From an uncultured Bacilli bacterium (GTDB taxonomy: Bacteria > Bacillota_I > Bacilli_A > RF39 > UBA660): a stretch of DNA of 64,000 bases. The stretch covers positions 1,050-65,049 of the forward strand of contig CANRGA010000003.1 of NCBI GenBank assembly GCA_947630055.1, read 5' to 3'. Below, piece by piece: positions 11,307-49,841 of this stretch. The notes beneath the pieces are model-generated. The model worked only from the letters and a program-made list of their open reading frames with translations, had not been told where the DNA came from and did not search any database. The translations under genes and the position numbers were made by a program. How positions within the stretch are numbered: position 1 is the first letter of the stretch; the number at the start of each line of letters is the position of its first letter.

Positions 11307-11798
11307 ATGAATAAAATAATGGAAAAAATAAAAAGCTTAGATAAGAAAGAAGTCATAGCTATAATTGGTATTTTGTTAATAATGATGGCGCTATTTATGC
11401 TTCCTCGGTTTATTTTAGGCAAAGATAATACTTTACCAGAAGTTAAGTTAAGAGAACTGCGTAATAATGGAATGTTTGCGTTAATGATACCTGATGATAA
11501 TCATGAAGGACAATATAAAGAATATACTGGAAACGATTTATTTCCTAAAGGTTATTTACTAAATATTGATAAAAGTTATTGTTTAGATAATGCAGGACAG
11601 GAGGTAAAAGGCGTATTAAGTAGAGTAAAAGGTAGTAACAGTGTTACATTAAAAAGTAATCAAACAGTCTATTGTACATTGTACTTTGAACATTCAGCAG
11701 CAGTTGTATTAATTTATAATAATACAATAAAACAAAAAACAGGTTGTACAAATGTCCAATGTGCTTTAGATGAATTATACACAGTAAGTTATTATTAG
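11307..11798 (+). CDS. TM-anchored small surface protein, stand-alone copy of the N-terminal module of the 36185/48384 paralogs
   Basis: N-terminal TM. LPEVKLRELRNN...TVYCTLYFE aligns with LPEVKLKEIVNKNK...TVYCTVYFD of the paralogs. The C-terminus has TNVQCALDELY, like the target protein N-terminus. Confidence 0.7.
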   Translation: MNKIMEKIKSLDKKEVIAIIGILLIMMALFMLPRFILGKDNTLPEVKLRELRNNGMFALMIPDDNHEGQYKEYTGNDLFPKGYLLNIDKSYCLDNAGQEVKGVLSRVKGSNSVTLKSNQTVYCTLYFEHSAAVVLIYNNTIKQKTGCTNVQCALDELYTVSYY

Positions 11799-11813: not shown

Positions 11814-13274
11814 ATGAAGAAAGTAATAAAAAATAATTATAAATTAATAATAGGTATAATCATAGGACTTGTAATATCAGTAAGTGGTGTATATGCTGCT
11901 ACTGCAATAATTCAAAGTAAAGAAGTTAACTATGATAATTCATCAAGTCATGGTTCATATACTAATGTTCAAGATTCAATAGATGAACTATACGAAAGAA
12001 GTGGCTTGACAAAATCAAAATGGGTAGATTCAACATTAAATGGTAATGATCCAGTATTAGGAGAAGGAATGATACCAGTCACTATAGATGGTAATGGTAA
12101 AGTTTACTATGCTAGTGAATATACAGAATGGTATAACTATAGTGAAAAGAGATGGGCTAATGCAGTTATATTGACAAGTTCAGCTAGTAAATATTCTGCT
12201 GGTCAAGAAATACCAGATAAAGATATTAAAGGATACTTTGTATGGATACCAAGATATAGTTATAAAATTTGGAATGATGGTAACTATACTAAAACAATGA
12301 CTTTAACAGATTTAAAGAATACAAAAGAAACAGCTACGGATGAAGGAGCATTATGGAAAATAACTGGAAATAATACTAGAATAATAGATATTAAATTTGT
12401 TGGAAAAGATACAACTGATACTGGTGATAGTGTAGGACAATATTTAACTCATCCAGCATTTAAACTAGGAAGTAAAGTATTAACTGGTATATGGGTAGGA
12501 AAATTTGAAACTGGTGGATCTAGTACAGATACAATGGTGGTAAAGCCTGGTGTTGTATCATGGAGAAATAAAACGGTAAAAGAATTTTTTGATGCTGGCA
12601 AAAGTTTTGCTCAAAAACTAGATAGCCATATGATGAAAAATACAGAATGGGGAGCTGCTGCATACTTATCTCATTCACAATATGGTATAGGAAATGAAGT
12701 AAATATCAATAATGCAAGTGATTATTATACAGGTTATAGTGCAGCTCCTGGAACTAATCAAAGTACAATACCAGCAGAATCAGCAGCACATACTGAGGGA
12801 ACAAAAACTCAACCATGGAATACTCCAGTTGGATATCTTGCAAGTACAACCGGAAATATAAGTGGTATCTATGATATGTCAGGCGGTGCTTGGGAATATA
12901 TGGCAGCATGTGTAGAAGGTAAGCCTGGTTCTAGTGGCTTTGAAGAAGGTGCATTATCTACTGAAATGACTAGTGGATATATTGATAAATATCCATCAGA
13001 TAGTGGAATAACAACATATAATAAAAGAATCTTAGGCGATGCCACGGGAGAGATGGGTCCTTTCTATAGTTATTTTGAAGGAAATGGAACATCTTATAAT
13101 CATTCTAGTTGGTATGGCGACTACGCTTATTTCGTTGGGTCGGCGTGGCCTTGGTTCAGTCGTGGTGGCGGTTTCAGCGACGGCGTTATCGCTGGTCAGT
13201 TCTACTTCAATAGGTACACTGGTGAGGCCGTTGGCGGCTATGGTTTCCGGGTTGTTCTTGCTCCAACCAAATAA
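11814..13274 (+). CDS. DGR target (variable) protein: signal-anchored, FGE-sulfatase/C-type-lectin-like C-terminal domain carrying the VR
   Basis: Motifs THPAF..GIWVGKFE, NISGIYDMSGGAWEY (GxYDMSGNxWEW-type) and a terminal ...GFRVVL. The last ~150 nt are repeated four times downstream with adenine-centred differences. Confidence 0.9.
   Translation: MKKVIKNNYKLIIGIIIGLVISVSGVYAATAIIQSKEVNYDNSSSHGSYTNVQDSIDELYERSGLTKSKWVDSTLNGNDPVLGEGMIPVTIDGNGKVYYASEYTEWYNYSEKRWANAVILTSSASKYSAGQEIPDKDIKGYFVWIPRYSYKIWNDGNYTKTMTLTDLKNTKETATDEGALWKITGNNTRIIDIKFVGKDTTDTGDSVGQYLTHPAFKLGSKVLTGIWVGKFETGGSSTDTMVVKPGVVSWRNKTVKEFFDAGKSFAQKLDSHMMKNTEWGAAAYLSHSQYGIGNEVNINNASDYYTGYSAAPGTNQSTIPAESAAHTEGTKTQPWNTPVGYLASTTGNISGIYDMSGGAWEYMAACVEGKPGSSGFEEGALSTEMTSGYIDKYPSDSGITTYNKRILGDATGEMGPFYSYFEGNGTSYNHSSWYGDYAYFVGSAWPWFSRGGGFSDGVIAGQFYFNRYTGEAVGGYGFRVVLAPTK
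13113..13261 (+). repeat. DGR variable repeat (VR), 149 nt
   Basis: Ungapped alignment to the four downstream 149-nt copies. It is strongly GC-rich and A-poor relative to the rest of the gene. AAY codons of the copies appear here as TAC/TAT/AGT/GGT/GTT. Confidence 0.9.
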
Positions 13275-13320
13275 TTTGTGAACGAAGTGAGCAAATTATT
13301 AACTTTGTTGCTTTTAAATA

Positions 13321-13358
13321 GTCACCCCGCTCTTCTTTTTAAGCGGGGTGACTAATTT
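13321..13358 (+). terminator. GC-rich hairpin/terminator after the target gene (possibly also a DGR target-recognition hairpin)
   Basis: gtcaccccgc (13321-13330) pairs with gcggggtgac (13343-13352), with a 12-nt loop followed by a T-rich run. Confidence 0.7.
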
Positions 13359-13368
13359 TTGTTTATAG

Positions 13369-13827
13369 TTGATAAAAAATTTAATATAACATAAAATGAT
13401 ATTGTAGGTCATAGGTTGTAAAAATTTGCTTTTTTACTTTTTAATTGCTTGATTTATGGCGACAACGCTAATTTCGTTGAGGCGGCATGGCCTTGGTTCA
13501 ATCGTGGTAGCAATTGGAACAATGGCGTACTTGCAGGTCAGTTCAACTTCAATAGGAACACTGGTGAGGCCAATGGCGGCAATGGTTTCCGGGTTGTTCT
13601 TGCAGACTAAAATATAAAAGTTTATTTAAACTTCATCATAATATTATTAATTATAAAGATATTATATCGAAATTAATGTGTTTAAGGACATTATTATGAT
13701 GCTTAATTTAGAAATTTATGACCTTTCTATTTTTAAAATAGGAAAATATTTAACAAAGTATTGTGGTTAGTAGTAAAATGACGAAAATCATAATATGATA
13801 GTAGTGCTAAAAATGGCACTACTTTTA
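13369..13827 (+). ncRNA. DGR template-repeat RNA cassette 1 (TR1 = 13455-13603)
   Basis: Promoter TTGATA 13369-13374, 17-nt spacer, TAAAAT 13392-13397. TR is rich in AAY codons (aac/aat at the positions where the VR varies). 3' flank has a stem 13634-13643/13692-13701. Leader 13406-13417 pairs with 13713-13724. Terminator stem 13800-13807/13816-13823 plus T-run. Confidence 0.7.
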
Positions 13828-13830
13828 TTA

Positions 13831-14296
13831 TTGATAAAAATTTTAATATAACATAAAATATTATTATAGGTCATAGGTTGTAAAAATTCTCTTTTTTTAC
13901 TTTTTAATAACTTGACTTATGGCGACATCGCTAATTTCGTTGAGTCAACGAATCCTTGGTTCAATCGTGGTAGCAATTGGAACGACGGCGTGCTTGCAGG
14001 TCAGTTCAACTTCAATAGGAACACTGGTGCGGCCAATGGCAACAATGGTTTCCGGGTTGTTCTTGCTAGACTAAATTATAAAAGTTTATAAAACTTCATC
14101 ATAATATTATTAATTATAAAAGATATTTTTATCGAAGTTAATGTGTTTACGGACATTATTATGATGCTTAATTTAGAAATTTATGACCTTTCTATTTTTA
14201 AAATAGGAGAAAAATTTAACAAAGTATTATGGTTAGTAGTAAAATGGCGAAAGTCATAATATGACAAGTAGTGCTTAAACAGCACTGCTTTTTTTG
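13831..14296 (+). ncRNA. DGR template-repeat RNA cassette 2 (TR2 = 13918-14066)
   Basis: Promoter TTGATA 13831-13836, 17-nt spacer, TAAAAT 13854-13859. Same leader (aggtcata 13868-13875) and 3' partner (tatgacct 14182-14189). Terminator stem 14267-14275/14281-14289 plus T6. Confidence 0.7.
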
Positions 14297-14388: not shown

Positions 14389-14849
14389 TTGATAAAACTT
14401 TTAATTTAAAATAAAATAATATTGTAGGTCATAGGTTGTAAAAATTTGCTTTTTTGACTTTTTAATAACTTGACTTATGGCGACAACGCTAATTTCGTTG
14501 ACTCAACGAACCCTTGGTTCAATCGTGGTGGCAATTGGAACGACGGCGTACTTGCAGGCCAGTTCTACTTCAATAGGAACACTGGTGAGGCCAATGTCAA
14601 CAGAGGTTTCCGGGTTGTTCTTGCAGACTAAATTATAAAAGTTTATTAAAACTTCGTCATAATATTATTAATAATAAAGATATTTTTTATCGAAATTAAT
14701 TTGTCTACGGACCTTATTATGATGTTTAATTTAGAAATTTATGACCTTTCTATTTTAATAGGAGAAAAATTTAACAAAGTATTATGGTTAGTAGTAAAAT
14801 GGCGAAAGTCATAATATGACAAGTGGTGCTTAAATGGCACTGCTTTTTA
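14389..14849 (+). ncRNA. DGR template-repeat RNA cassette 3 (TR3 = 14476-14624)
   Basis: Promoter TTGATA 14389-14394, 17-nt spacer, TAAAAT 14412-14417. Leader aggtcata 14426-14433 and partner tatgacct 14740-14747. Terminator 14822-14829/14837-14844 plus T-run. Confidence 0.7.
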
Positions 14850-14852
14850 TTG

Positions 14853-15315
14853 TTGAATTAATTTTTAATATAACATAAAATGATAATGTAGGTCATAGGT
14901 TGTAAAAATTCTCTTTTTTAACTTTTTAATAACTTAACTTATGGCGACAACGCTAATTTCGTTGAGTCGGCGTGGCCTTGGTTCAATCGTGGTGGCGGTT
15001 TCAGCGACGGCGTTATCGCTGGTCAGTTCTACTTCAATAGGAATGCTGGTGAGGCCAATGGCAATCGTGGTTTCCGGGTTGTTCTTGCTAGACTAAATTA
15101 TAAAAGTTTATTAAAGCTTCGTCATAATATTATTAATAAAAAAAAGATATTATATCGAAATTAATTTGTTTACGGACATTATTGTGATGCTTAATTTAGA
15201 AATTTATGACCTTTCTATTTTAAAATAGGAGAAAAATTTAACAAAGTATTATGGTTAGTAGTAAAATGACGAAAATCATAATATGACAAGTAGTGCTTAA
15301 ATAGCACTGCTTTTA
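14853..15315 (+). ncRNA. DGR template-repeat RNA cassette 4 (TR4 = 14940-15088)
   Basis: Promoter TTGAAT 14853-14858, 17-nt spacer, TAAAAT 14876-14881. Leader aggtcata 14890-14897 and partner tatgacct 15205-15212. Terminator 15289-15297/15303-15311 plus T-run. The central part of TR4 is identical to the current VR. Confidence 0.7.
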
Positions 15316-15432: not shown

Positions 15433-15825
15433 ATGAGTAAGATATATAACGAATATTTAAGATTAAAAGCAAAAGATCCTAATAAATTGTATTTATTTAA
15501 GTCGGGTAAATTTTATATATTTGTTGGTGATGATGTTGATACTATAAATAATTATGTTGTTTTAAAGAGAACAAATTTTTCTAATGAATCTCAAAAATGT
15601 GGTTTTCCAGAAAGCGTTTTAGATGATTATTTAAGAGTGTTTAAAAATCATCATTTAGATATTGAAGTAATAACAGAAATAATACCTATTAATGATGATG
15701 ATAGTAAATTAGAAAAGATTACTAATTATTTAAAAAGAATTAAAATTGATAAGATTACGCCTTTAGAGGCTTTTAAACATTTAGTAAGAATAAAGGAAAT
15801 AGTAGATGATGAAGAAAGGAGTTGA
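15433..15825 (+). CDS. MutS-domain-I-like small protein (DGR accessory, MSL-type)
   Basis: ATG 15433 follows ggagg (15421-15425). NEYLRLKAKDPNKLYLFKSGKFYIFVGDDV...CGFPESVLDDYLRVF aligns with MutS N-terminal [30 protein letters not shown]...AGIPYHAVENYLAKL. Confidence 0.7.
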   Translation: MSKIYNEYLRLKAKDPNKLYLFKSGKFYIFVGDDVDTINNYVVLKRTNFSNESQKCGFPESVLDDYLRVFKNHHLDIEVITEIIPINDDDSKLEKITNYLKRIKIDKITPLEAFKHLVRIKEIVDDEERS

Positions 15826-16168
15826 AGATGTCAAAATATATCGTAATTATTTTGACTTTATTTGTTATATAGAAATGATTACGGAAAAATTTCCTAAATA
15901 TACTAAATTTGGTTTTGTTAATATTATTAAGAAAACTTTATATAAAGGAATGGAAGATATATTATATGCTTATAAGTCATTTGAAAAGAGTGATAAGCTT
16001 TCCTATTTAAATGATTTAGATGTTACTTTAAAAATGTTAAAGTTATATGCAAGAGTATCTTATAAGAAAAAATATATTAATGTTAAAAATTATGAGGCAT
16101 GGAGTAGAAAAATAAATAGTGTTTGTACTTCTTTAGGAGCTTGGATTAATGTATGCCTAAAACGATAA
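15806..16168 (+). CDS. avd: Avd-like accessory variability determinant (four-helix-bundle protein)
   Basis: About 120 aa, helical, with a pattern like four-helix-bundle/23S-IVS proteins. Lies immediately upstream of and overlapping the RT, as in canonical DGRs. Confidence 0.75.
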   Translation: MMKKGVEDVKIYRNYFDFICYIEMITEKFPKYTKFGFVNIIKKTLYKGMEDILYAYKSFEKSDKLSYLNDLDVTLKMLKLYARVSYKKKYINVKNYEAWSRKINSVCTSLGAWINVCLKR

Positions 16169-17190
16169 AAAATAGTTTTGATGAAAAATTAACTTTTCAA
16201 AAGTTAATAGAAGCTCATCAAAGAGCTTCAATAGGAAAGCAAAATAAAAAAGAAGTTATTTTATTTGGAGTTGATTTAGAAACTAATATTATTAGAATTC
16301 TCAATGAAATTCAAAGAGGTATATATCGATTTGGAGAATATCGGGAATTTGTTGTTTATGAACCTAAAGAAAGAATAATTAAATCACTACCATATCGTGA
16401 TCGGGTAGTACATCAATGGTATGTAGAAGAATTTATTAAACCTTATTTTTGTAAACGATTTATAAGTGATACATATGCTTGTCTAGATGATAAAGGAACT
16501 CATAAAGCAGTTTTTAATACGCAAAAGAAAATGCGCTATATGAAAAGAAAATACGGCCATTATTATGTTTTAAAGTGTGATATTAAAAAATATTTTTATA
16601 GTATTGATAAGAAAATACTAATGGATATTTTAAGTAAAAGAATGAAAGATAAAAAATTAATAGAGTTTACAAGAACTATTTTAGATGATGGACAAGAAAA
16701 GGGTATTCCAATTGGTAATTTTACTAGTCAATATTTTGCTAATATTTATTTAAATGAATTAGATCATTATGTAAAAGAACAATTACAAATTAAATGTTAT
16801 ATTAGATATATGGATGATTTTATATTTATGTTACCTACAAAAGAAGAAGCTAAAAAAGTTCAAGCAGAAATAACTAGTTTTTTAGCTGATCATTTAAATT
16901 TAACTTTGAATACTAAAAGTAGATATTTTTCTCATAAATTTGGAATAGATTTTTGTGGCTTTCGAATTTATGAAACACATATATTACTTCGTAAAAGGTT
17001 TAAAAGAAAATTAAATAAAAGTATTAAATTGTGGCATATGTTAAAAAAGAAAAATAGATTTTATGATAAGAAGTTTTTATTAAGTTTAAACTCTTATCGT
17101 GGTCACGCTATTCATTGTAATTCTTATCATTTTATGCAAAAAGTAGATGAGAAAATAAAAGATTTATATCCAACAGAAAATAATAAATAA
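16153..17190 (+). CDS. DGR-type reverse transcriptase
   Basis: RT motifs: YRDRVVHQ, KCDIKKYFYSID, PIGNFTSQYFANIYL (the DGR-diagnostic [ILV]GxxxSQ), and YMDDF catalytic box. Confidence 0.92.
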   Translation: MPKTIKNSFDEKLTFQKLIEAHQRASIGKQNKKEVILFGVDLETNIIRILNEIQRGIYRFGEYREFVVYEPKERIIKSLPYRDRVVHQWYVEEFIKPYFCKRFISDTYACLDDKGTHKAVFNTQKKMRYMKRKYGHYYVLKCDIKKYFYSIDKKILMDILSKRMKDKKLIEFTRTILDDGQEKGIPIGNFTSQYFANIYLNELDHYVKEQLQIKCYIRYMDDFIFMLPTKEEAKKVQAEITSFLADHLNLTLNTKSRYFSHKFGIDFCGFRIYETHILLRKRFKRKLNKSIKLWHMLKKKNRFYDKKFLLSLNSYRGHAIHCNSYHFMQKVDEKIKDLYPTENNK

Positions 17191-17315: not shown

Positions 17316-18062
17316 TTGGTACCTATTTTAAAAATTGATCGTAATTTTAAAGCGGTAGTAGCAGATCCGAATGATACTAAATTACTAGAATGTATTTTAA
17401 CAGATATTTTAGATGAAGAAGTACATATAGTAAAATTTATTTCTAATGAATTAAAAATAACAGATTTAATAGTTGAAACAAATAATGGAGAATGTCTACT
17501 TATTGAATTAAATAGTAATTATGATAATTCATTAAAATTAAGAAATTTATCATATTTTACTTCATATTATTCGCAAATAGTTGTAATAAATTTAAATTAT
17601 GGTATGAGTGAAAAAGAACCATTTAAAGAAATATATTATTTAAGAGGAAATATAACAGGAAGAATATATACGGATACTTTTAAAATAATCGATGTAAATC
17701 TTGATAAGTATAAAGAGAAATGGTACGATAAATGTATAGAAGGCGACAAAAAACATATATATCTAGTAATGTTAAATGCTAATTCAAAAGAAATAAAAAA
17801 ATTAAGTAAAAGAGATAAAATAATAAGGGAGTATGAGAAAAAGATGTTAACTTTAACAAAAGAAGGTGTAGTAATAAATCATTTGACACCAAAAGAGGAA
17901 GAAGAAAAATTAATGCGTTCAAGAATACATATGGCAGAAATAGAAGGAATTAATAAAGTTGCAATTAATCTTTTAAAAACAAATATGTCTATAGAATATA
18001 TTGAAAAAGTAACGGGACTTACGAAAAGAGAAATTAAAATATTAAAGGAAAAAATAAAATAA
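17316..18062 (+). CDS. Rpn/YhgA-like PD-(D/E)XK recombination-promoting nuclease/putative transposase
   Basis: TTG start after gggagg. N-terminal pattern ...FKAVVADPNDTKLLECILTDIL...DLIVETNNGECLLIELN... and a C-terminal HTH-like tail (SIEYIEKVTGLTKREIKIL) typical of the family. Confidence 0.6.
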   Translation: MVPILKIDRNFKAVVADPNDTKLLECILTDILDEEVHIVKFISNELKITDLIVETNNGECLLIELNSNYDNSLKLRNLSYFTSYYSQIVVINLNYGMSEKEPFKEIYYLRGNITGRIYTDTFKIIDVNLDKYKEKWYDKCIEGDKKHIYLVMLNANSKEIKKLSKRDKIIREYEKKMLTLTKEGVVINHLTPKEEEEKLMRSRIHMAEIEGINKVAINLLKTNMSIEYIEKVTGLTKREIKILKEKIK

Positions 18063-22223: not shown

Positions 22224-22745
<522 letters not shown>

Positions 22746-22844
22746 AATAAAAGGCTTAAAGCCTTTTTTAATTTTTAATAAAATTTTTTTAGTTGACAAA
22801 TTTTTTTAATAATTTATAATAATTAACCACAAAGGGATGATTAT

Positions 22845-36184: not shown

Positions 36185-37546
36185 ATGAAAAGAAAATATT
36201 TAAAAGGTTTAATAGTAATTGTAGGAATAATTATTGGAGGATTATTCATATATCAAGATATAAATAAAGAAAATAAACCATTACCAGAAGTAAAGTTAAA
36301 AGAAATTGTAAATAAAAATAAATCATTTGCTATAATGATTCAAGAGAATAGTGAAACTGATAAATATCAAGAATATAGTAGTAATACATGGCCTGGAGAT
36401 GATTATGTATTTAAAGAAGCTAAATGTATAGATAATAATGGTAATGAAATAAAAGAAGCAGTAACATATGAAAATGATAAAATAACCTTAACTACAAATA
36501 AGACAGTATATTGTACAGTATATTTTGACAAATCAATAATAGGAAAGTTAAGAGAAAATGAAGAATTGGCCAATAAAGATAATTTAAGTAAAGATTTACA
36601 AGGCGGAATGTATAGATATCAAGGAACAGATGATGTTCATAATTGGATATGCTTTGGAACAGAAGAAAATTGTGGAACAAATGATGATAATATAGATAAA
36701 TATATGTATAGAATAATAGGAATAACAAAAGAAGGGCAATTATATTTATTAAAAGAAACATTTTTAAAAGAAGGAAATATAAATAATTTTGCTTGGAATT
36801 CAAAACATACATTGCCAGACTGTCTAGGAGAAGCTTGTGAATGGCCAAATGTGAATTTATATAAGAGAATAAATGGAAAAAGTAATGGAGAAACACCAGG
36901 AAATAATAGTTATCCTGATTATAAAGGCGATACAAATGTCTTTTTAGGTACAAGTGAACATACAAGTCCGTATGAATACTTAACTGAAGGGAACGAATGG
37001 TTCAATTTAATAATATATCATGACTGGATGTATGGTGATACAAATATAAGTTCTTGGAGTAATTCAAATGCATATAATGGAGATTATATGTATGCTATAG
37101 AAACTGGAAATACATCAACAAAAAGAACTTGGCCATATGAAGATATTCAAACAACATGTAGTGATGATGGTCCATGTACAGAAAAAGATTATACATGGAG
37201 TAAAAGTGTACCAGCAAAAATAGGATTAATGTATATGCATGATGTAGATTATGCATATAAAGATGGAAACCCAAGAAATTATGCAAATGTGGCAAATAGT
37301 TGGATACATTTTCAAAAAGATGGATATAATTTATCTCCATCTTATGAGTGGTTAATCAGTCGTTTTGGCGTAGTTGATTCGAGTAGTACTTCTGTAAAAG
37401 TAATGGATGTTGGTTATAATGGTGCATTAACTACTGGAACTTTGAGTGGCTCAGCTGGTAGTCGTCCAACTTTTTATCTAACACCTAGTATAACTTTAAC
37501 TGGTGCTGGTACAAAAGAAAATCCATATATAATTCATTCTATATGA
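36185..37546 (+). CDS. Surface-protein paralog A (TM anchor, conserved N-module, variable C-terminal module ending ...RPTFYL...GTKENPYII)
   Basis: Paralogous to 40873 and 48384 over MYRYQGTD..NWICFGT...IDKYMYRIIG..KETFLKE...MY.HD..YAY.DG...EWL.SR.G...RP.FYL...GTKENP. Confidence 0.8.
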   Translation: MKRKYLKGLIVIVGIIIGGLFIYQDINKENKPLPEVKLKEIVNKNKSFAIMIQENSETDKYQEYSSNTWPGDDYVFKEAKCIDNNGNEIKEAVTYENDKITLTTNKTVYCTVYFDKSIIGKLRENEELANKDNLSKDLQGGMYRYQGTDDVHNWICFGTEENCGTNDDNIDKYMYRIIGITKEGQLYLLKETFLKEGNINNFAWNSKHTLPDCLGEACEWPNVNLYKRINGKSNGETPGNNSYPDYKGDTNVFLGTSEHTSPYEYLTEGNEWFNLIIYHDWMYGDTNISSWSNSNAYNGDYMYAIETGNTSTKRTWPYEDIQTTCSDDGPCTEKDYTWSKSVPAKIGLMYMHDVDYAYKDGNPRNYANVANSWIHFQKDGYNLSPSYEWLISRFGVVDSSSTSVKVMDVGYNGALTTGTLSGSAGSRPTFYLTPSITLTGAGTKENPYIIHSI

Positions 37547-40872: not shown

Positions 40873-42555
40873 ATGGAAGAAGAAAATAAGAGTGAAAAAA
40901 ATAAAAGAAGAATAGTATTGTTATTTGGTATAGTAGCAATATTAGTAGCCTTATCTGGAGCAACATTTGCATATTTTCAAATAACTACTGAGACAAGTAA
41001 TAGTAAAGCTACTATAACAGGAAGTACACCAGCAAGTGGTTTAGTAACTTTAAATCAAGGAGTAGATAATTTACACTTAAATATAAGTGCTAGTGATATG
41101 TCACTTAATAATAAGGGAAAAGAATATTATGGTACAGATGATGATCAAAATTATGTTGATACAGAAGTATTAGGTACCAAAACAATAGCAGATGTTACAT
41201 TATCTGGTGGCGAAGAAACAACCAAATATAGTTGTACTGCTAAATTAACTGTGTCAAAGGATGAAACAGACACCATGATAGAAGTATTACAACCAGGAGA
41301 TATGATATTACAATTTAAGGGTAATATCATAAGTGAAAAATTAGATTTAAGTGACTTAAAAGATAATAATCCAAAGGAATATAATTTAAGTTTTAAAATA
41401 ACTGGTAATAATAAAGAAGAAATACAAGCATATATTAAATTATTAAACAAAGAAGAACAACAAAATTATTTAGCAGGTCGTAAATTAAATATCGATATTA
41501 CTACATCAGAATTAAAATGTGAAGTTGCATTACCAGATCCAAAGATAGCACAGTTAAGAGAAAAAGATCCAAGTAATACGTTAAGTGAAGATTTACAAGG
41601 AGGAATGTATAGATACCAAGGAACAGATAATGTACCAAATTGGATATGCTTTGGAACAAGAAATGCAGATGAATGTAAAAGTGATCCAGATGGAATAGAT
41701 AAATATATGTATAGAATAATCGGAATAACAGAAGAAGGACAAATGTATTTAATAAAAGAAACTTTCTTGAAAGAAGGAAGTGGAACAACATTTACATGGA
41801 ATGACAAATATTCTGTTGATAGTTCAAGTTCATATTATTGTGATAATGGATTATGCCCAGAATGGAATACAAGTCTGTTGTTTAAAAGAATAAATGGAAC
41901 AAGTAATGGAACAACCCAAGGAACAACAAGTAATAAAGCTGATACCGATATCTTTGTAGATAGTGCCCAATATGATTATTTAAAGTCAGGAGATAGTAAT
42001 AGTGGTGGTAGTGCAAGTGAGTGGTATAATTTAATTGCAAACCATGAATGGTTATATGGAGATACAAATGAAAGTTCAGCAGCAAATAAATATAATGGAG
42101 ATGCAATGTATGCTATCGAAAATGGAGATAAAGAAACAACTCATTATGTAGGAACAAAAGATAATATAACACAAGAACCATACACATGGAGTCAAAAAGT
42201 AACAGCTAAAATAAGTTTAATGTATTTACATGATTATTATTATGGATATTATGATGGTTCTTCAGAAGAAAGTAGAGGAAATGCAGGAAGTTATAGTAAA
42301 TTGGCAAGTAGTTGGTTATTTTTTAAAAAAGATGGATATAATTCATCTCAATCTTCTGAATGGTTGAGCACTCGCTGGGGTGTCTATAGTACGAGTCTCG
42401 CGAATGTCTACGCGTGGTTTGTGAATAATAACGGCGACTGGGGCTACGACGACTTGAGCCTTGCGTACGGCGTGCGGCCTGTCTTCTATCTTGAGTCAAG
42501 TGCAAAAATATCAAGTGGAGACGGAACAAAGGAAAATCCATTTATATTAGCTTAG
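40873..42555 (+). CDS. Surface-protein paralog B with SipW/TasA-type signal peptide and GC-rich VR-like 3' patch
   Basis: The N-terminus ...LSGATFAYFQ resembles SipW-dependent signal peptides. The C-terminal module is homologous to paralogs A and C and ends ...YGVRPVFYLES...GTKENPFILA. Confidence 0.8.
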   Translation: MEEENKSEKNKRRIVLLFGIVAILVALSGATFAYFQITTETSNSKATITGSTPASGLVTLNQGVDNLHLNISASDMSLNNKGKEYYGTDDDQNYVDTEVLGTKTIADVTLSGGEETTKYSCTAKLTVSKDETDTMIEVLQPGDMILQFKGNIISEKLDLSDLKDNNPKEYNLSFKITGNNKEEIQAYIKLLNKEEQQNYLAGRKLNIDITTSELKCEVALPDPKIAQLREKDPSNTLSEDLQGGMYRYQGTDNVPNWICFGTRNADECKSDPDGIDKYMYRIIGITEEGQMYLIKETFLKEGSGTTFTWNDKYSVDSSSSYYCDNGLCPEWNTSLLFKRINGTSNGTTQGTTSNKADTDIFVDSAQYDYLKSGDSNSGGSASEWYNLIANHEWLYGDTNESSAANKYNGDAMYAIENGDKETTHYVGTKDNITQEPYTWSQKVTAKISLMYLHDYYYGYYDGSSEESRGNAGSYSKLASSWLFFKKDGYNSSQSSEWLSTRWGVYSTSLANVYAWFVNNNGDWGYDDLSLAYGVRPVFYLESSAKISSGDGTKENPFILA

Positions 42556-48383: not shown

Positions 48384-49841
48384 ATGAAAGAAAAATATTT
48401 AAAAAGTTTAATAGTAATTGTAGTAGTAAGTTTAATGGGAATATTTATATATCAAAATATAAATAAAGAAAATAAACCATTACCAGAAGTAAAGTTAAAA
48501 AAAATTGTAAATAAAAATAAATCTTTTGCCATAATGATCCAAGAAAAAAGTGAAACTGATAAATATCAAGAATATGATAGTAATACATGGCCAGGAGATG
48601 ATTATAAATTCAAAGAAGCTAAATGTATAGATAATAATGGTAATGAAATAAAAGAAGCAGTAACATATGAAGAAAGTAAAATAACATTAACTACAAATAA
48701 GACAGTATATTGTACAGTATACTTTGATAAATCACTAATAGGTAAATTAAGAGAAGCAGATACAAACAAAAATTTAAGTACAGATATACAAGGAGATATG
48801 TATAGATATCAAGGAACAGATGATGTTCATAATTGGATATGTTTTGGAACGACAAATAATTGTGGAACAAATGAAACAGATAATGATGGGGATAGTATAC
48901 CAGATGGAATAGATAAATATATGTACAGGATAATAGGAGTAACAAAAGAGGGACAATTAAAATTAATAAAAGAAACATTTTTAAAAGAAGATAATAAAAT
49001 TATACCGCTTCAATGGAATAATGTTGCAAAGATAAGTCAGCCTTATACAGGAGTAGATAATGATAAATGTGATGGAACAAATTGTGATTGGCCTAATTCA
49101 ATGTTATTTAAAAGATTAAATGGTTTAAATAATGATGAAACTACAAAGGGAAATAAGGGTAATTCAGAAATATTTATTGATAGTGAATATTATAATTATT
49201 TAAAATCAGGTGATGGAAGTGGATTAGACAATACGACACCAAGTACATGGTATAATATAATAGAAAATCATAATTGGAAATATGGAGATATTTTTGATAG
49301 CGTTTGGGATGCAATACCTCATAATGCAGCTTCTTATGATGGTGATGCTGCATATGCGATTGAAAGTGGCGAATCTAATACTCAAAGAGTGTGGCCAAAA
49401 ATTGGCCAATCATGTAATAATGAAACACCTTGTGAATTAGAAGATTACACTTGGAAAAATAATAATGTAGAAGCAAAAATTGGCCTTATGTATTTGCATG
49501 ATTATTATTATGCGTATTATGATGGTAAGACTGAAAGTACTCGAGGTAAGCCTGGTAATTCTGGTGTATTAAATAATTGTTGGATAACATATTATAAAGA
49601 TGGATTTATTAAACAAAATAATGGAGATTCTGAATTTTTAATAACTCGTCGAGGAATAACTAAAAATAATCCAAATATTGGTTCCTTTTTAATTAGTACT
49701 TGGGCATATGTCACAACAGACAGTATATATATTGAAATAGGGACATCTATATATTCACGACCAGTTTTCTATTTAACAAATACTATTGATTTGTCTGGTA
49801 ATGGTACTAAAGAAAATCCATTTATTATAGATATTGAATAA
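48384..49841 (+). CDS. Surface-protein paralog C
   Basis: The first ~125 aa are nearly identical to paralog A. The C-terminal module is homologous but diverged (…EFLITRRG…YSRPVFYLTN…GTKENPFII). Confidence 0.8.
   Translation: MKEKYLKSLIVIVVVSLMGIFIYQNINKENKPLPEVKLKKIVNKNKSFAIMIQEKSETDKYQEYDSNTWPGDDYKFKEAKCIDNNGNEIKEAVTYEESKITLTTNKTVYCTVYFDKSLIGKLREADTNKNLSTDIQGDMYRYQGTDDVHNWICFGTTNNCGTNETDNDGDSIPDGIDKYMYRIIGVTKEGQLKLIKETFLKEDNKIIPLQWNNVAKISQPYTGVDNDKCDGTNCDWPNSMLFKRLNGLNNDETTKGNKGNSEIFIDSEYYNYLKSGDGSGLDNTTPSTWYNIIENHNWKYGDIFDSVWDAIPHNAASYDGDAAYAIESGESNTQRVWPKIGQSCNNETPCELEDYTWKNNNVEAKIGLMYLHDYYYAYYDGKTESTRGKPGNSGVLNNCWITYYKDGFIKQNNGDSEFLITRRGITKNNPNIGSFLISTWAYVTTDSIYIEIGTSIYSRPVFYLTNTIDLSGNGTKENPFIIDIE

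Follow-up and report, generated by a model that had tools for sequence, protein, structure and literature searches.

In the usual picture of a diversity-generating retroelement (DGR), one template repeat (TR) writes into one or more variable repeats (VRs), and diversity arises from adenine mutagenesis only. Silent-cassette gene conversion, known from Neisseria pilE/pilS, Borrelia vlsE/vls and the chicken immunoglobulin (Ig) V pseudogenes, draws on an unexpressed donor array near one expression site and yields segmental mosaics from constant donors. We report on a DGR within 64,000 nucleotides of an uncultured Bacilli bacterium (assembly GCA_947630055.1, contig CANRGA010000003.1, positions 1,050 to 65,049; this whole stretch is called the window), in which four TR cassettes stand in tandem beside a single VR and the VR itself is a mosaic of two of them.

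Homing has been studied in phage BPP-1, where the 3' end of the complementary DNA (cDNA) is integrated at a fixed point in the initiation-of-mutagenic-homing element (IMH) at the VR 3' end (PMC3240598). Integration at the 5' side needs at least 8 bp of cDNA/VR homology and can make use of cryptic internal sites; template switching has been proposed for this step (PMC3240598). DGRs with a MutS-like (MSL) accessory gene are a described class (Wu et al. 2018, PMC5758913). In Stenotrophomonas sp. SKA14, six VRs and two TRs have been annotated for one DGR locus (PMC6642488), for which Wu et al. cautioned about assembly problems (PMC5758913), and TR variants between Treponema strains have been reported (PMC4891356). 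Literature searches in a limited full-text collection, in which absence is not proven, yielded no description of tandem multi-TR arrays for one VR or of mosaic VRs.

A variable repeat composed from two templates

A repeat family of about 150 nt is present in five copies in the window, which align without gaps. One copy lies in the 3' end of the DGR target gene and four are intergenic.

13113-13261 (end at 13261/2), + strand: VR, codons 434-483 of the target gene, delimited by alignment of the repeat family
13369-13823, + strand: cassette 1, with promoter-like TTGATA-17-TAAAAT (13369-13397), TR1 (13455-13604), spacer and terminator hairpin (13800-13823)
13831-14290, + strand: cassette 2, with promoter-like site (13831-13859), TR2 (13918-14067), spacer and terminator (14266-14290)
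14389-14845, + strand: cassette 3, with promoter-like site (14389-14417), TR3 (14476-14625), spacer and terminator (14821-14845)
14853-15312, + strand: cassette 4, with promoter-like TTGAAT-17-TAAAAT (14853-14881), TR4 (14940-15089), spacer and terminator (15288-15312)

Differences restricted to template adenines, as they characterize a DGR, were obtained only under a two-template model. The closest single template was TR4 with 14 differences, nine at adenine sites and five at non-adenine sites (13217, 13218, 13238, 13239, 13240). Against TR1 the VR showed 18 adenine-site differences over 150 nt (17 over 149 nt) and six others (13140, 13174, 13175, 13181, 13188, 13190), against TR2 20 and eight, and against TR3 21 and nine, respectively. 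All 12 ordered two-template combinations were then evaluated at every breakpoint. A TR4-derived 5' part followed by a TR1-derived 3' part was the sole model with zero non-adenine mismatches, the first TR1-derived base being possible anywhere in 13191-13217. The runner-up models kept one non-adenine mismatch (TR4 with TR2, at 13225) or two (TR4 with TR3). Eight residual changes, all at template adenines (13122, 13128, 13138, 13159, 13215, 13230, 13231, 13239) and located in codons 4, 6, 9, 16, 35, 40 and 43, were left, so that 8 of 25 template adenines versus 0 of 124 other positions are changed (Fisher p = 2e-7). The VR is divided as follows.

13113-13190, + strand: necessarily TR4-derived, with adenine-site changes 13122 T, 13128 T, 13138 G and 13159 G; 13190 is the last site that excludes TR1
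13191-13216, + strand: crossover zone, in which either template is possible; TR1 and TR4 are identical in the runs 13194-13202 (9 nt) and 13204-13214 (11 nt)
13217-13261, + strand: not derivable from TR4 and, by alignment, compatible with TR1 with the adenine-only changes 13230 G, 13231 T and 13239 T

TR1 and TR4 differ at 22 sites. Up to 13203 the VR has the TR4 base at 15 of 15 of these, and from 13217 onwards it has the TR1 base or an adenine-site change of TR1 at 7 of 7. Each of the other templates is excluded for the 5' part by six to eight non-adenine sites, so that its derivation from TR4 is strongly determined, and the case against TR4 as the source of the 3' part is strong as well. 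The VR sequence is a mosaic of two TRs. The 11 strictly discriminating sites group into just 4 + 2 clusters, and the occurrence of one breakpoint is therefore in itself not improbable (p = 0.13 when clusters are counted, 0.004 when sites are).

These computations repeated an analysis done by hand on the letters alone. The original prediction had counted about 18 adenine and six other differences to TR1 and about nine and five to TR4, and the recomputed alignments returned these numbers at the same sites. The TR4/TR1 mosaic with its eight adenine-only changes was reproduced exactly, and breakpoint enumeration gave the crossover interval 13191-13216 that had been proposed. Two observations had been named as fatal for the mosaic, non-adenine mismatches in a computed alignment and a further template that matches the whole VR with adenine-only differences. 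The former numbered zero, and a search of the 64-kb window for the 20-mer shared by all copies, with up to three mismatches allowed, gave five occurrences and hence no fifth TR-like copy.

VR turnover in near-clonal contigs

Relatives of the locus were found by exact-protein look-up with the reverse transcriptase (RT) and with a 163-aa gene upstream of the target; the contigs are metagenome assemblies from ENA. Their VRs were assigned to the TRs of the window by dynamic programming. Contigs from other samples represent essentially one strain with the window, being 99.9-100 % identical to it outside the VR, with 0-2 mismatches per 4-7 kb.

L001: 9646 nt, starts in mid-TR1 (13545), includes TR4 and extends 8 kb past it; 1 mismatch; VR outside the contig
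L007: covers the first 59 nt of the VR only; 2 mismatches outside the VR, 6 inside
L008: same sample as L001; 2 mismatches outside the VR, 29 inside
L009: 4364 nt; 0 mismatches outside the VR, 1 inside
L010 (ERZ27249337): TR1 and TR2 identical to the window, TR3 and TR4 not recovered; 1 mismatch outside the VR, 8 inside

The VR of L007 was TR1-type over its 59 nt with zero non-adenine mismatches, each other TR giving at least four. That of L008 was TR2-type with 18 adenine changes and one non-adenine mismatch at 13123 (TR2 T, VR A), hence the first 11-26 nt were not rewritten by the TR2 event and represent a 5' relic. L009 and L010 share 75 nt (13113-13187) with the window, including all four adenine-site outcomes, and differ from it only further 3' (13188, 13203, 13218, 13230-31, 13238-40). 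All three complete VRs are mosaics, and that of L010 (L010:2623-2772) is a TR4/TR1/TR4 sandwich relative to the TRs of the window. When proteins were searched with the last 186 aa of the target, no additional VR variants of the same strain appeared; the homologues reached at most 68 % identity, some carried the name 'Bacilli/Firmicutes bacterium', and the contigs of two of them (P0006, P0007) had no adjacent DGR. Another contig, L017 (P0003), belongs to a diverged strain with other TRs and was dropped from template assignment.

The DGR is active, since the VR changes in a near-clonal background beside a constant TR array; this is the ongoing diversification with unchanged template expected of such elements. 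At least three cassettes (TR1, TR2 and TR4) have been used on the same VR. The claim that two or more cassettes had served it, derived from the mosaic alone, is thereby corroborated independently by the TR1-type VR of L007, the TR2-type VR of L008 and the TR4-type 5' part of L009 and L010. Segments at the 5' end of the VR persist and those at the 3' end turn over.

Codon 35 (13215-13217) reads TAC (Tyr; template AAC/AAT) in every VR seen, those of the window, L010, L008 and the diverged L017, which suggests selection for tyrosine rather than shared descent.

Origin of the mosaic

The explanation to which we give somewhat better than an even chance is that of a genuine mosaic, written by an active DGR with four independently transcribed cassettes, in which an older homing from TR4 was followed by a later, 3'-anchored and partial homing from TR1. 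An adenine-mutagenized, TR4-templated event would have written the 5' part (13113 to at least 13190) that is still common to L009 and L010. A later TR1-templated cDNA, likewise mutagenized at adenines, would have overwritten the 3' part, which ends at 13261 and begins at 13217 or earlier. This cDNA would have been integrated at the fixed VR 3' end and resolved at a short internal homology within 13191-13216 instead of the VR 5' end, giving a TR1 tract that extends 45-71 nt inward. We infer the order of the two events and the 3' anchoring from the distribution of the segments: TR1-type sequence continues to the VR end, TR4-type sequence upstream is held in common with L009 and L010, and L008 has kept a non-TR2 5' end. 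Partial homing anchored at the 3' end would be expected to leave just such an older 5' segment in common, beside divergent 3' segments. Partial tracts are to be expected, because 5' resolution in BPP-1 can use short internal sites of at least 8 bp; the 9- and 11-nt runs in the crossover zone are long enough, and the agreement with a DGR mechanism of variable 5' resolution, which the original prediction had put forward, holds up against the BPP-1 data (PMC3240598). Its proposal of a later partial TR1 homing over an older TR4-type VR is supported by the shared 5' and divergent 3' parts of L009 and L010, though the sandwich of L010 shows that the simple model does not explain everything.

Several observations weigh against this sequence of events. 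The preference for TR1 over TR2 as 3' donor depends on one non-adenine site (13225), plus two fewer adenine changes (13236-37), and the exact VR of the window is present in one assembly only. Under strict 3' anchoring the L010 sandwich needs three or four successive events, so that copy-choice or patchy repair may operate; an unrecovered cassette of that strain is also possible. As codon 35 illustrates, identity at single sites may result from selection and be mistaken for common descent. Finally, the search for a fifth TR covered only the 64-kb window.

Among the alternatives, a single homing with copy-choice by the RT survives best, and we regard it as unlikely. The cDNA, begun on TR1 RNA, would have jumped within 13191-13216 to a co-expressed TR4 RNA of about 85 % identity. 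The four TR RNAs are much alike, have conserved spacers and are probably expressed together, and the L010 sandwich would be one event with two switches, which is more economical than three or four successive events. Template switching has, as mentioned, already been proposed for the 5' step of homing (PMC3240598). The VR of the window nevertheless requires no switch: its TR4-type 5' 75 nt are common to L009 and L010, and because the adenine-site outcomes also match, this segment was inherited and not newly made. We know of no experimental evidence for switching between templates by a DGR RT.

An assembly or consensus chimera of co-existing TR4-type and TR1-type VR variants appears improbable. 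VRs are heterogeneous in the population, the ENA contigs have just 3-5x coverage, assemblies break at the repeat array, and the window VR was not replicated in another contig. The longest run that the two parents could share at the junction, however, is 26 nt (13191-13216), too short at the usual final k-mer sizes, and mosaics are seen in the independent assemblies L008 and L010, too. Even if the junction were artificial, both cassettes would still have been used.

About equally improbable is an exchange at the DNA level, either by homologous recombination of differently templated VR alleles (e.g., after DNA uptake) or by patchy mismatch repair of a cDNA/VR heteroduplex. In a second strain (L002, see below) the cassettes, too, are mosaics that arose by shuffling, which shows that these repeats do exchange segments at the DNA level; the locus encodes a MutS-like accessory protein, and patchy repair would fit the L010 sandwich. 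The 3' segment, on the other side, carries adenine-site changes of its own and thus involved an RT product, and the clonal background, with 0-2 single-nucleotide polymorphisms (SNPs) per 4-7 kb, gives no sign of imported DNA.

Very improbable is a single template, lost or remote, that combined a TR4-type 5' with a TR1-type 3' part. Arrays vary between strains, one L002 cassette joins a TR4-type centre to a following AACACT, and the search was limited to 64 kb of the genome, in which no fifth copy was found. That L002 cassette (c), however, misfits the VR with many non-adenine differences in the 5' part, and L001 and L010 have, as far as recovered, the same array as the window beside rewritten VRs; the array hence changes far more slowly than the VR. 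TR4 alone, although the closest single template, can be dismissed, since its five non-adenine differences all sit on TR1/TR4 polymorphisms (four with the TR1 base, the fifth at a TR1 adenine), which rules out random RT errors or point mutations, and SNPs in the background amount to about 1 per 3-7 kb.

The cassette array and its history

The four cassettes follow each other with a period of 463/558/464 nt, and each consists of the promoter-like site, a leader of about 60 nt, the TR, a conserved spacer of about 210 nt and the terminator-like hairpin, an arrangement that suggests separate transcription of each cassette. TR4 contains 24 adenines versus 34-36 in TR1-3; the codons that carry adenine differ among the TRs, and TR4 encodes GGFSDGVIA where TR1-3 encode variable Asn-rich codons. 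The spacers of the window cassettes and of four cassettes from another strain are nearly invariant. A consensus RNA fold of these eight spacers revealed no compensatory changes, leaving a structure unsupported.

The identity of VR and TRs stops sharply at 13261/2, after an adenine-free 20-mer common to all copies. An IMH at this end is putative. At about 13270-13300, 8 nt downstream of the VR, there is a weak AT hairpin, and a stronger structure follows; either may act as the target hairpin or cruciform known from other DGRs.

13319-13354, + strand: strong GC-rich hairpin, 57 nt 3' of the VR (DNA fold, z = -5.2), probably the terminator of the target gene

VR and TRs have 55 % GC, the window 26 %. 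In a scan of genome contigs, the shared 20-mer GGTTTCCGGGTTGTTCTTGC was found exactly in two unrelated contigs of metagenome-assembled genomes (MAGs), an Alphaproteobacterium (L015:1044-1063) and an Aquisalimonas (L016:4129-4148), and nowhere else.

A related strain gave insight into the array itself. L002 (L002:174-1870, ERZ27249236) encodes the same RT protein in flanks of 96-98 % identity and has at least four TR cassettes, which are re-assorted versions of TR1-4 with the blocks 13170-77, 13187-90, 13217-18 and 13238-40 shuffled among them. Its cassette b has T/G/G at 13122/13128/13138, where every other TR has adenine, a state like that of a mutagenized VR. The pattern hints at inter-cassette exchange and possibly at a back-flow of VR or cDNA into the TRs. 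A recent origin of TR4 as a copy of the window VR, or its mutation after templating, was considered and rejected: TR4 is identical in L001, from a sample with a TR2-type VR, and since the TR4-specific central and 3' blocks are also present in the diverged L002 cassettes, TR4 was neither recently altered nor copied from the VR. Compared with the VR, the TR array changes little.

Genes of the locus and its surroundings

The predicted genes make the locus a complete DGR with a CLec-type target, four TR cassettes, MSL, Avd and RT.

11814-13274, + strand: DGR target gene, 486 aa (open reading frame, ORF; Pfam PF03781 match, E = 2e-6)
15433-15825, + strand: MSL accessory gene, 130 aa from ATG (Pfam MutS_I, E = 1.7e-8)
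15806-16168, + strand: Avd accessory gene, 120 aa (Pfam bAvd, E = 1.9e-16)
16153-17190, + strand: DGR reverse transcriptase, 345 aa (Pfam RVT_1, E = 3.8e-16; IGNFTSQ and YMDD in the translation)

The RT shows the signature of DGR-type enzymes ([I/L/V]GxxxSQ and YxDD) as IGNFTSQ and YMDD, and two accessory proteins are indicated by the bAvd and MutS_I matches. The target has a hydrophobic N-terminal segment, KLIIGIIIGLVISVSG, and a C-terminal FGE-sulfatase/CLec-type domain (PF03781); the VR occupies codons 434-483 of 486 within this domain, the usual position at the 3' end of such a gene. For MSL the mechanically derived ORF begins at TTG 15403; gene calls exist in L001-L005.

Neighbours of the DGR are SpoVA and MurD genes, and viral contigs scanned with the RT contained no relatives. 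On these grounds the element is chromosomal, in what its gene content indicates to be a spore-forming Firmicute. Rfam matched no family on the whole 64-kb window. The ORF directly after the RT (17316-18062) has a weak PD-(D/E)XK match; its product counts 248 aa in the window, L001 and L003 and 201 aa in L002, L004 and L005, the alignments breaking at 17913-18023. Further downstream, a small ORF includes a 27-nt tandem repeat of at least 10 copies (22388-22765). Products of 169, 181 and 151 aa in L001, L002 and L003, respectively, imply that the repeat number differs, and the sole mismatch between L001 and the window (22256) lies in this ORF, upstream of the repeat. Three paralogous genes (36185-37546, 40873-42555, 48384-49841) have repeat families in common, and their 5' parts resemble the 163-aa ORF (11307-11798) upstream of the DGR target. 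As further DGR targets these paralogues were rejected for lack of similarity to the target.

Comparison with known systems

Eighty related RT loci from metagenomes, with 44-71 % identity, served for comparison. Nearly all have one VR and one TR. Among the 52 related loci with a repeat pair, multi-cassette arrays were seen in two lineages only. An exception is L028 (L028:58-4900, ODUU01000980.1; RT 54 % identical), where seven diverged TR cassettes lie between a VR and the Avd and RT genes. This VR matches the fifth, non-adjacent cassette with 11 adenine-only and zero non-adenine changes; the other six give 14-30 non-adenine differences. L028 is like the window in having a VR with a TR array and differs in that its cassettes are much more diverged and its VR has a single template. 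Extra cassettes occur also in L036. This locus was rejected as an independent mosaic, because its VR misfits its own two cassettes (17-26 non-adenine differences) and the array is probably collapsed or variable.

We tentatively propose, at a confidence a little short of even, a combinatorial donor-cassette type of DGR. Independently transcribed TR RNAs would compete for one VR, and segmental retrohoming, by partial tracts and possibly by RT copy-choice, would shuffle framework differences on top of adenine mutagenesis. The cassettes would in turn be reshaped by inter-cassette exchange, perhaps with back-flow of VR or cDNA, and arrays of 4-7 cassettes would occur in at least two lineages of the RT clade.

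Where several alternative templates in an array supply one VR and the VR is built as a mosaic, a second, combinatorial layer of diversity is added, in which templates are not only mutated but also combined. The cassettes differ in the residues that they fix, such as GGFSDGVIA in TR4 versus the variable Asn codons of TR1-3, and in the codons that they expose to mutagenesis. Their non-adenine differences are built-in markers of the length and direction of homing tracts, therefore ordinary metagenome reads or amplicons could measure where DGR cDNA integration starts and resolves in vivo. To our knowledge, this question has so far been addressed only with engineered markers in phage BPP-1. In practice, pipelines that demand adenine-only mismatches to one TR would reject the VR of the window, because each single TR leaves 5-9 non-adenine mismatches.

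With the MSL-containing DGRs (architecture D, Wu et al. 2018, PMC5758913; Msl DGRs of Legionella and Bacteroides, PMC11601372) the locus shares the gene set of target with VR, TR, MSL, Avd and RT, the adenine-specific changes from TR to VR, an AAY-rich TR and a VR at the C-terminus of a CLec/FGE-sulfatase-type protein. In contrast to them, it has four tandem, promoter- and terminator-flanked TR cassettes for one VR; these cassettes differ at non-adenine sites and in adenine-bearing codons (24 to 36 adenines), and the VR is a two-cassette mosaic. The fixed 3' start and the homology-dependent 5' resolution at short internal sites in BPP-1 (Guo et al. 2008/2011; PMC3240598) resemble what is proposed here; partial tracts came to light there in a single-TR system, through engineered markers or deletions, whereas natural non-adenine polymorphisms of the cassettes are the markers in the window. 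The SKA14 DGR is likewise annotated with more than one TR in one locus, but its many VRs are distributed over several genes, no mosaic has been reported, and alternative TRs feeding the same VR are not in evidence.

The silent-cassette systems offer a functional analogy and no homology. Conversion of the pilS/vls type proceeds from DNA to DNA, depends on a recombinase and involves no RT, and the adenine-specific changes and the attached RT/Avd operon set the locus apart from it. RecA or AID drives DNA conversion in those systems, whereas the transfer in the window uses an RNA intermediate and an error-prone RT and adds adenine mutagenesis. What sets the locus apart from the DGRs described so far is that alternative templates for one VR stand in tandem and that a mosaic results from them.

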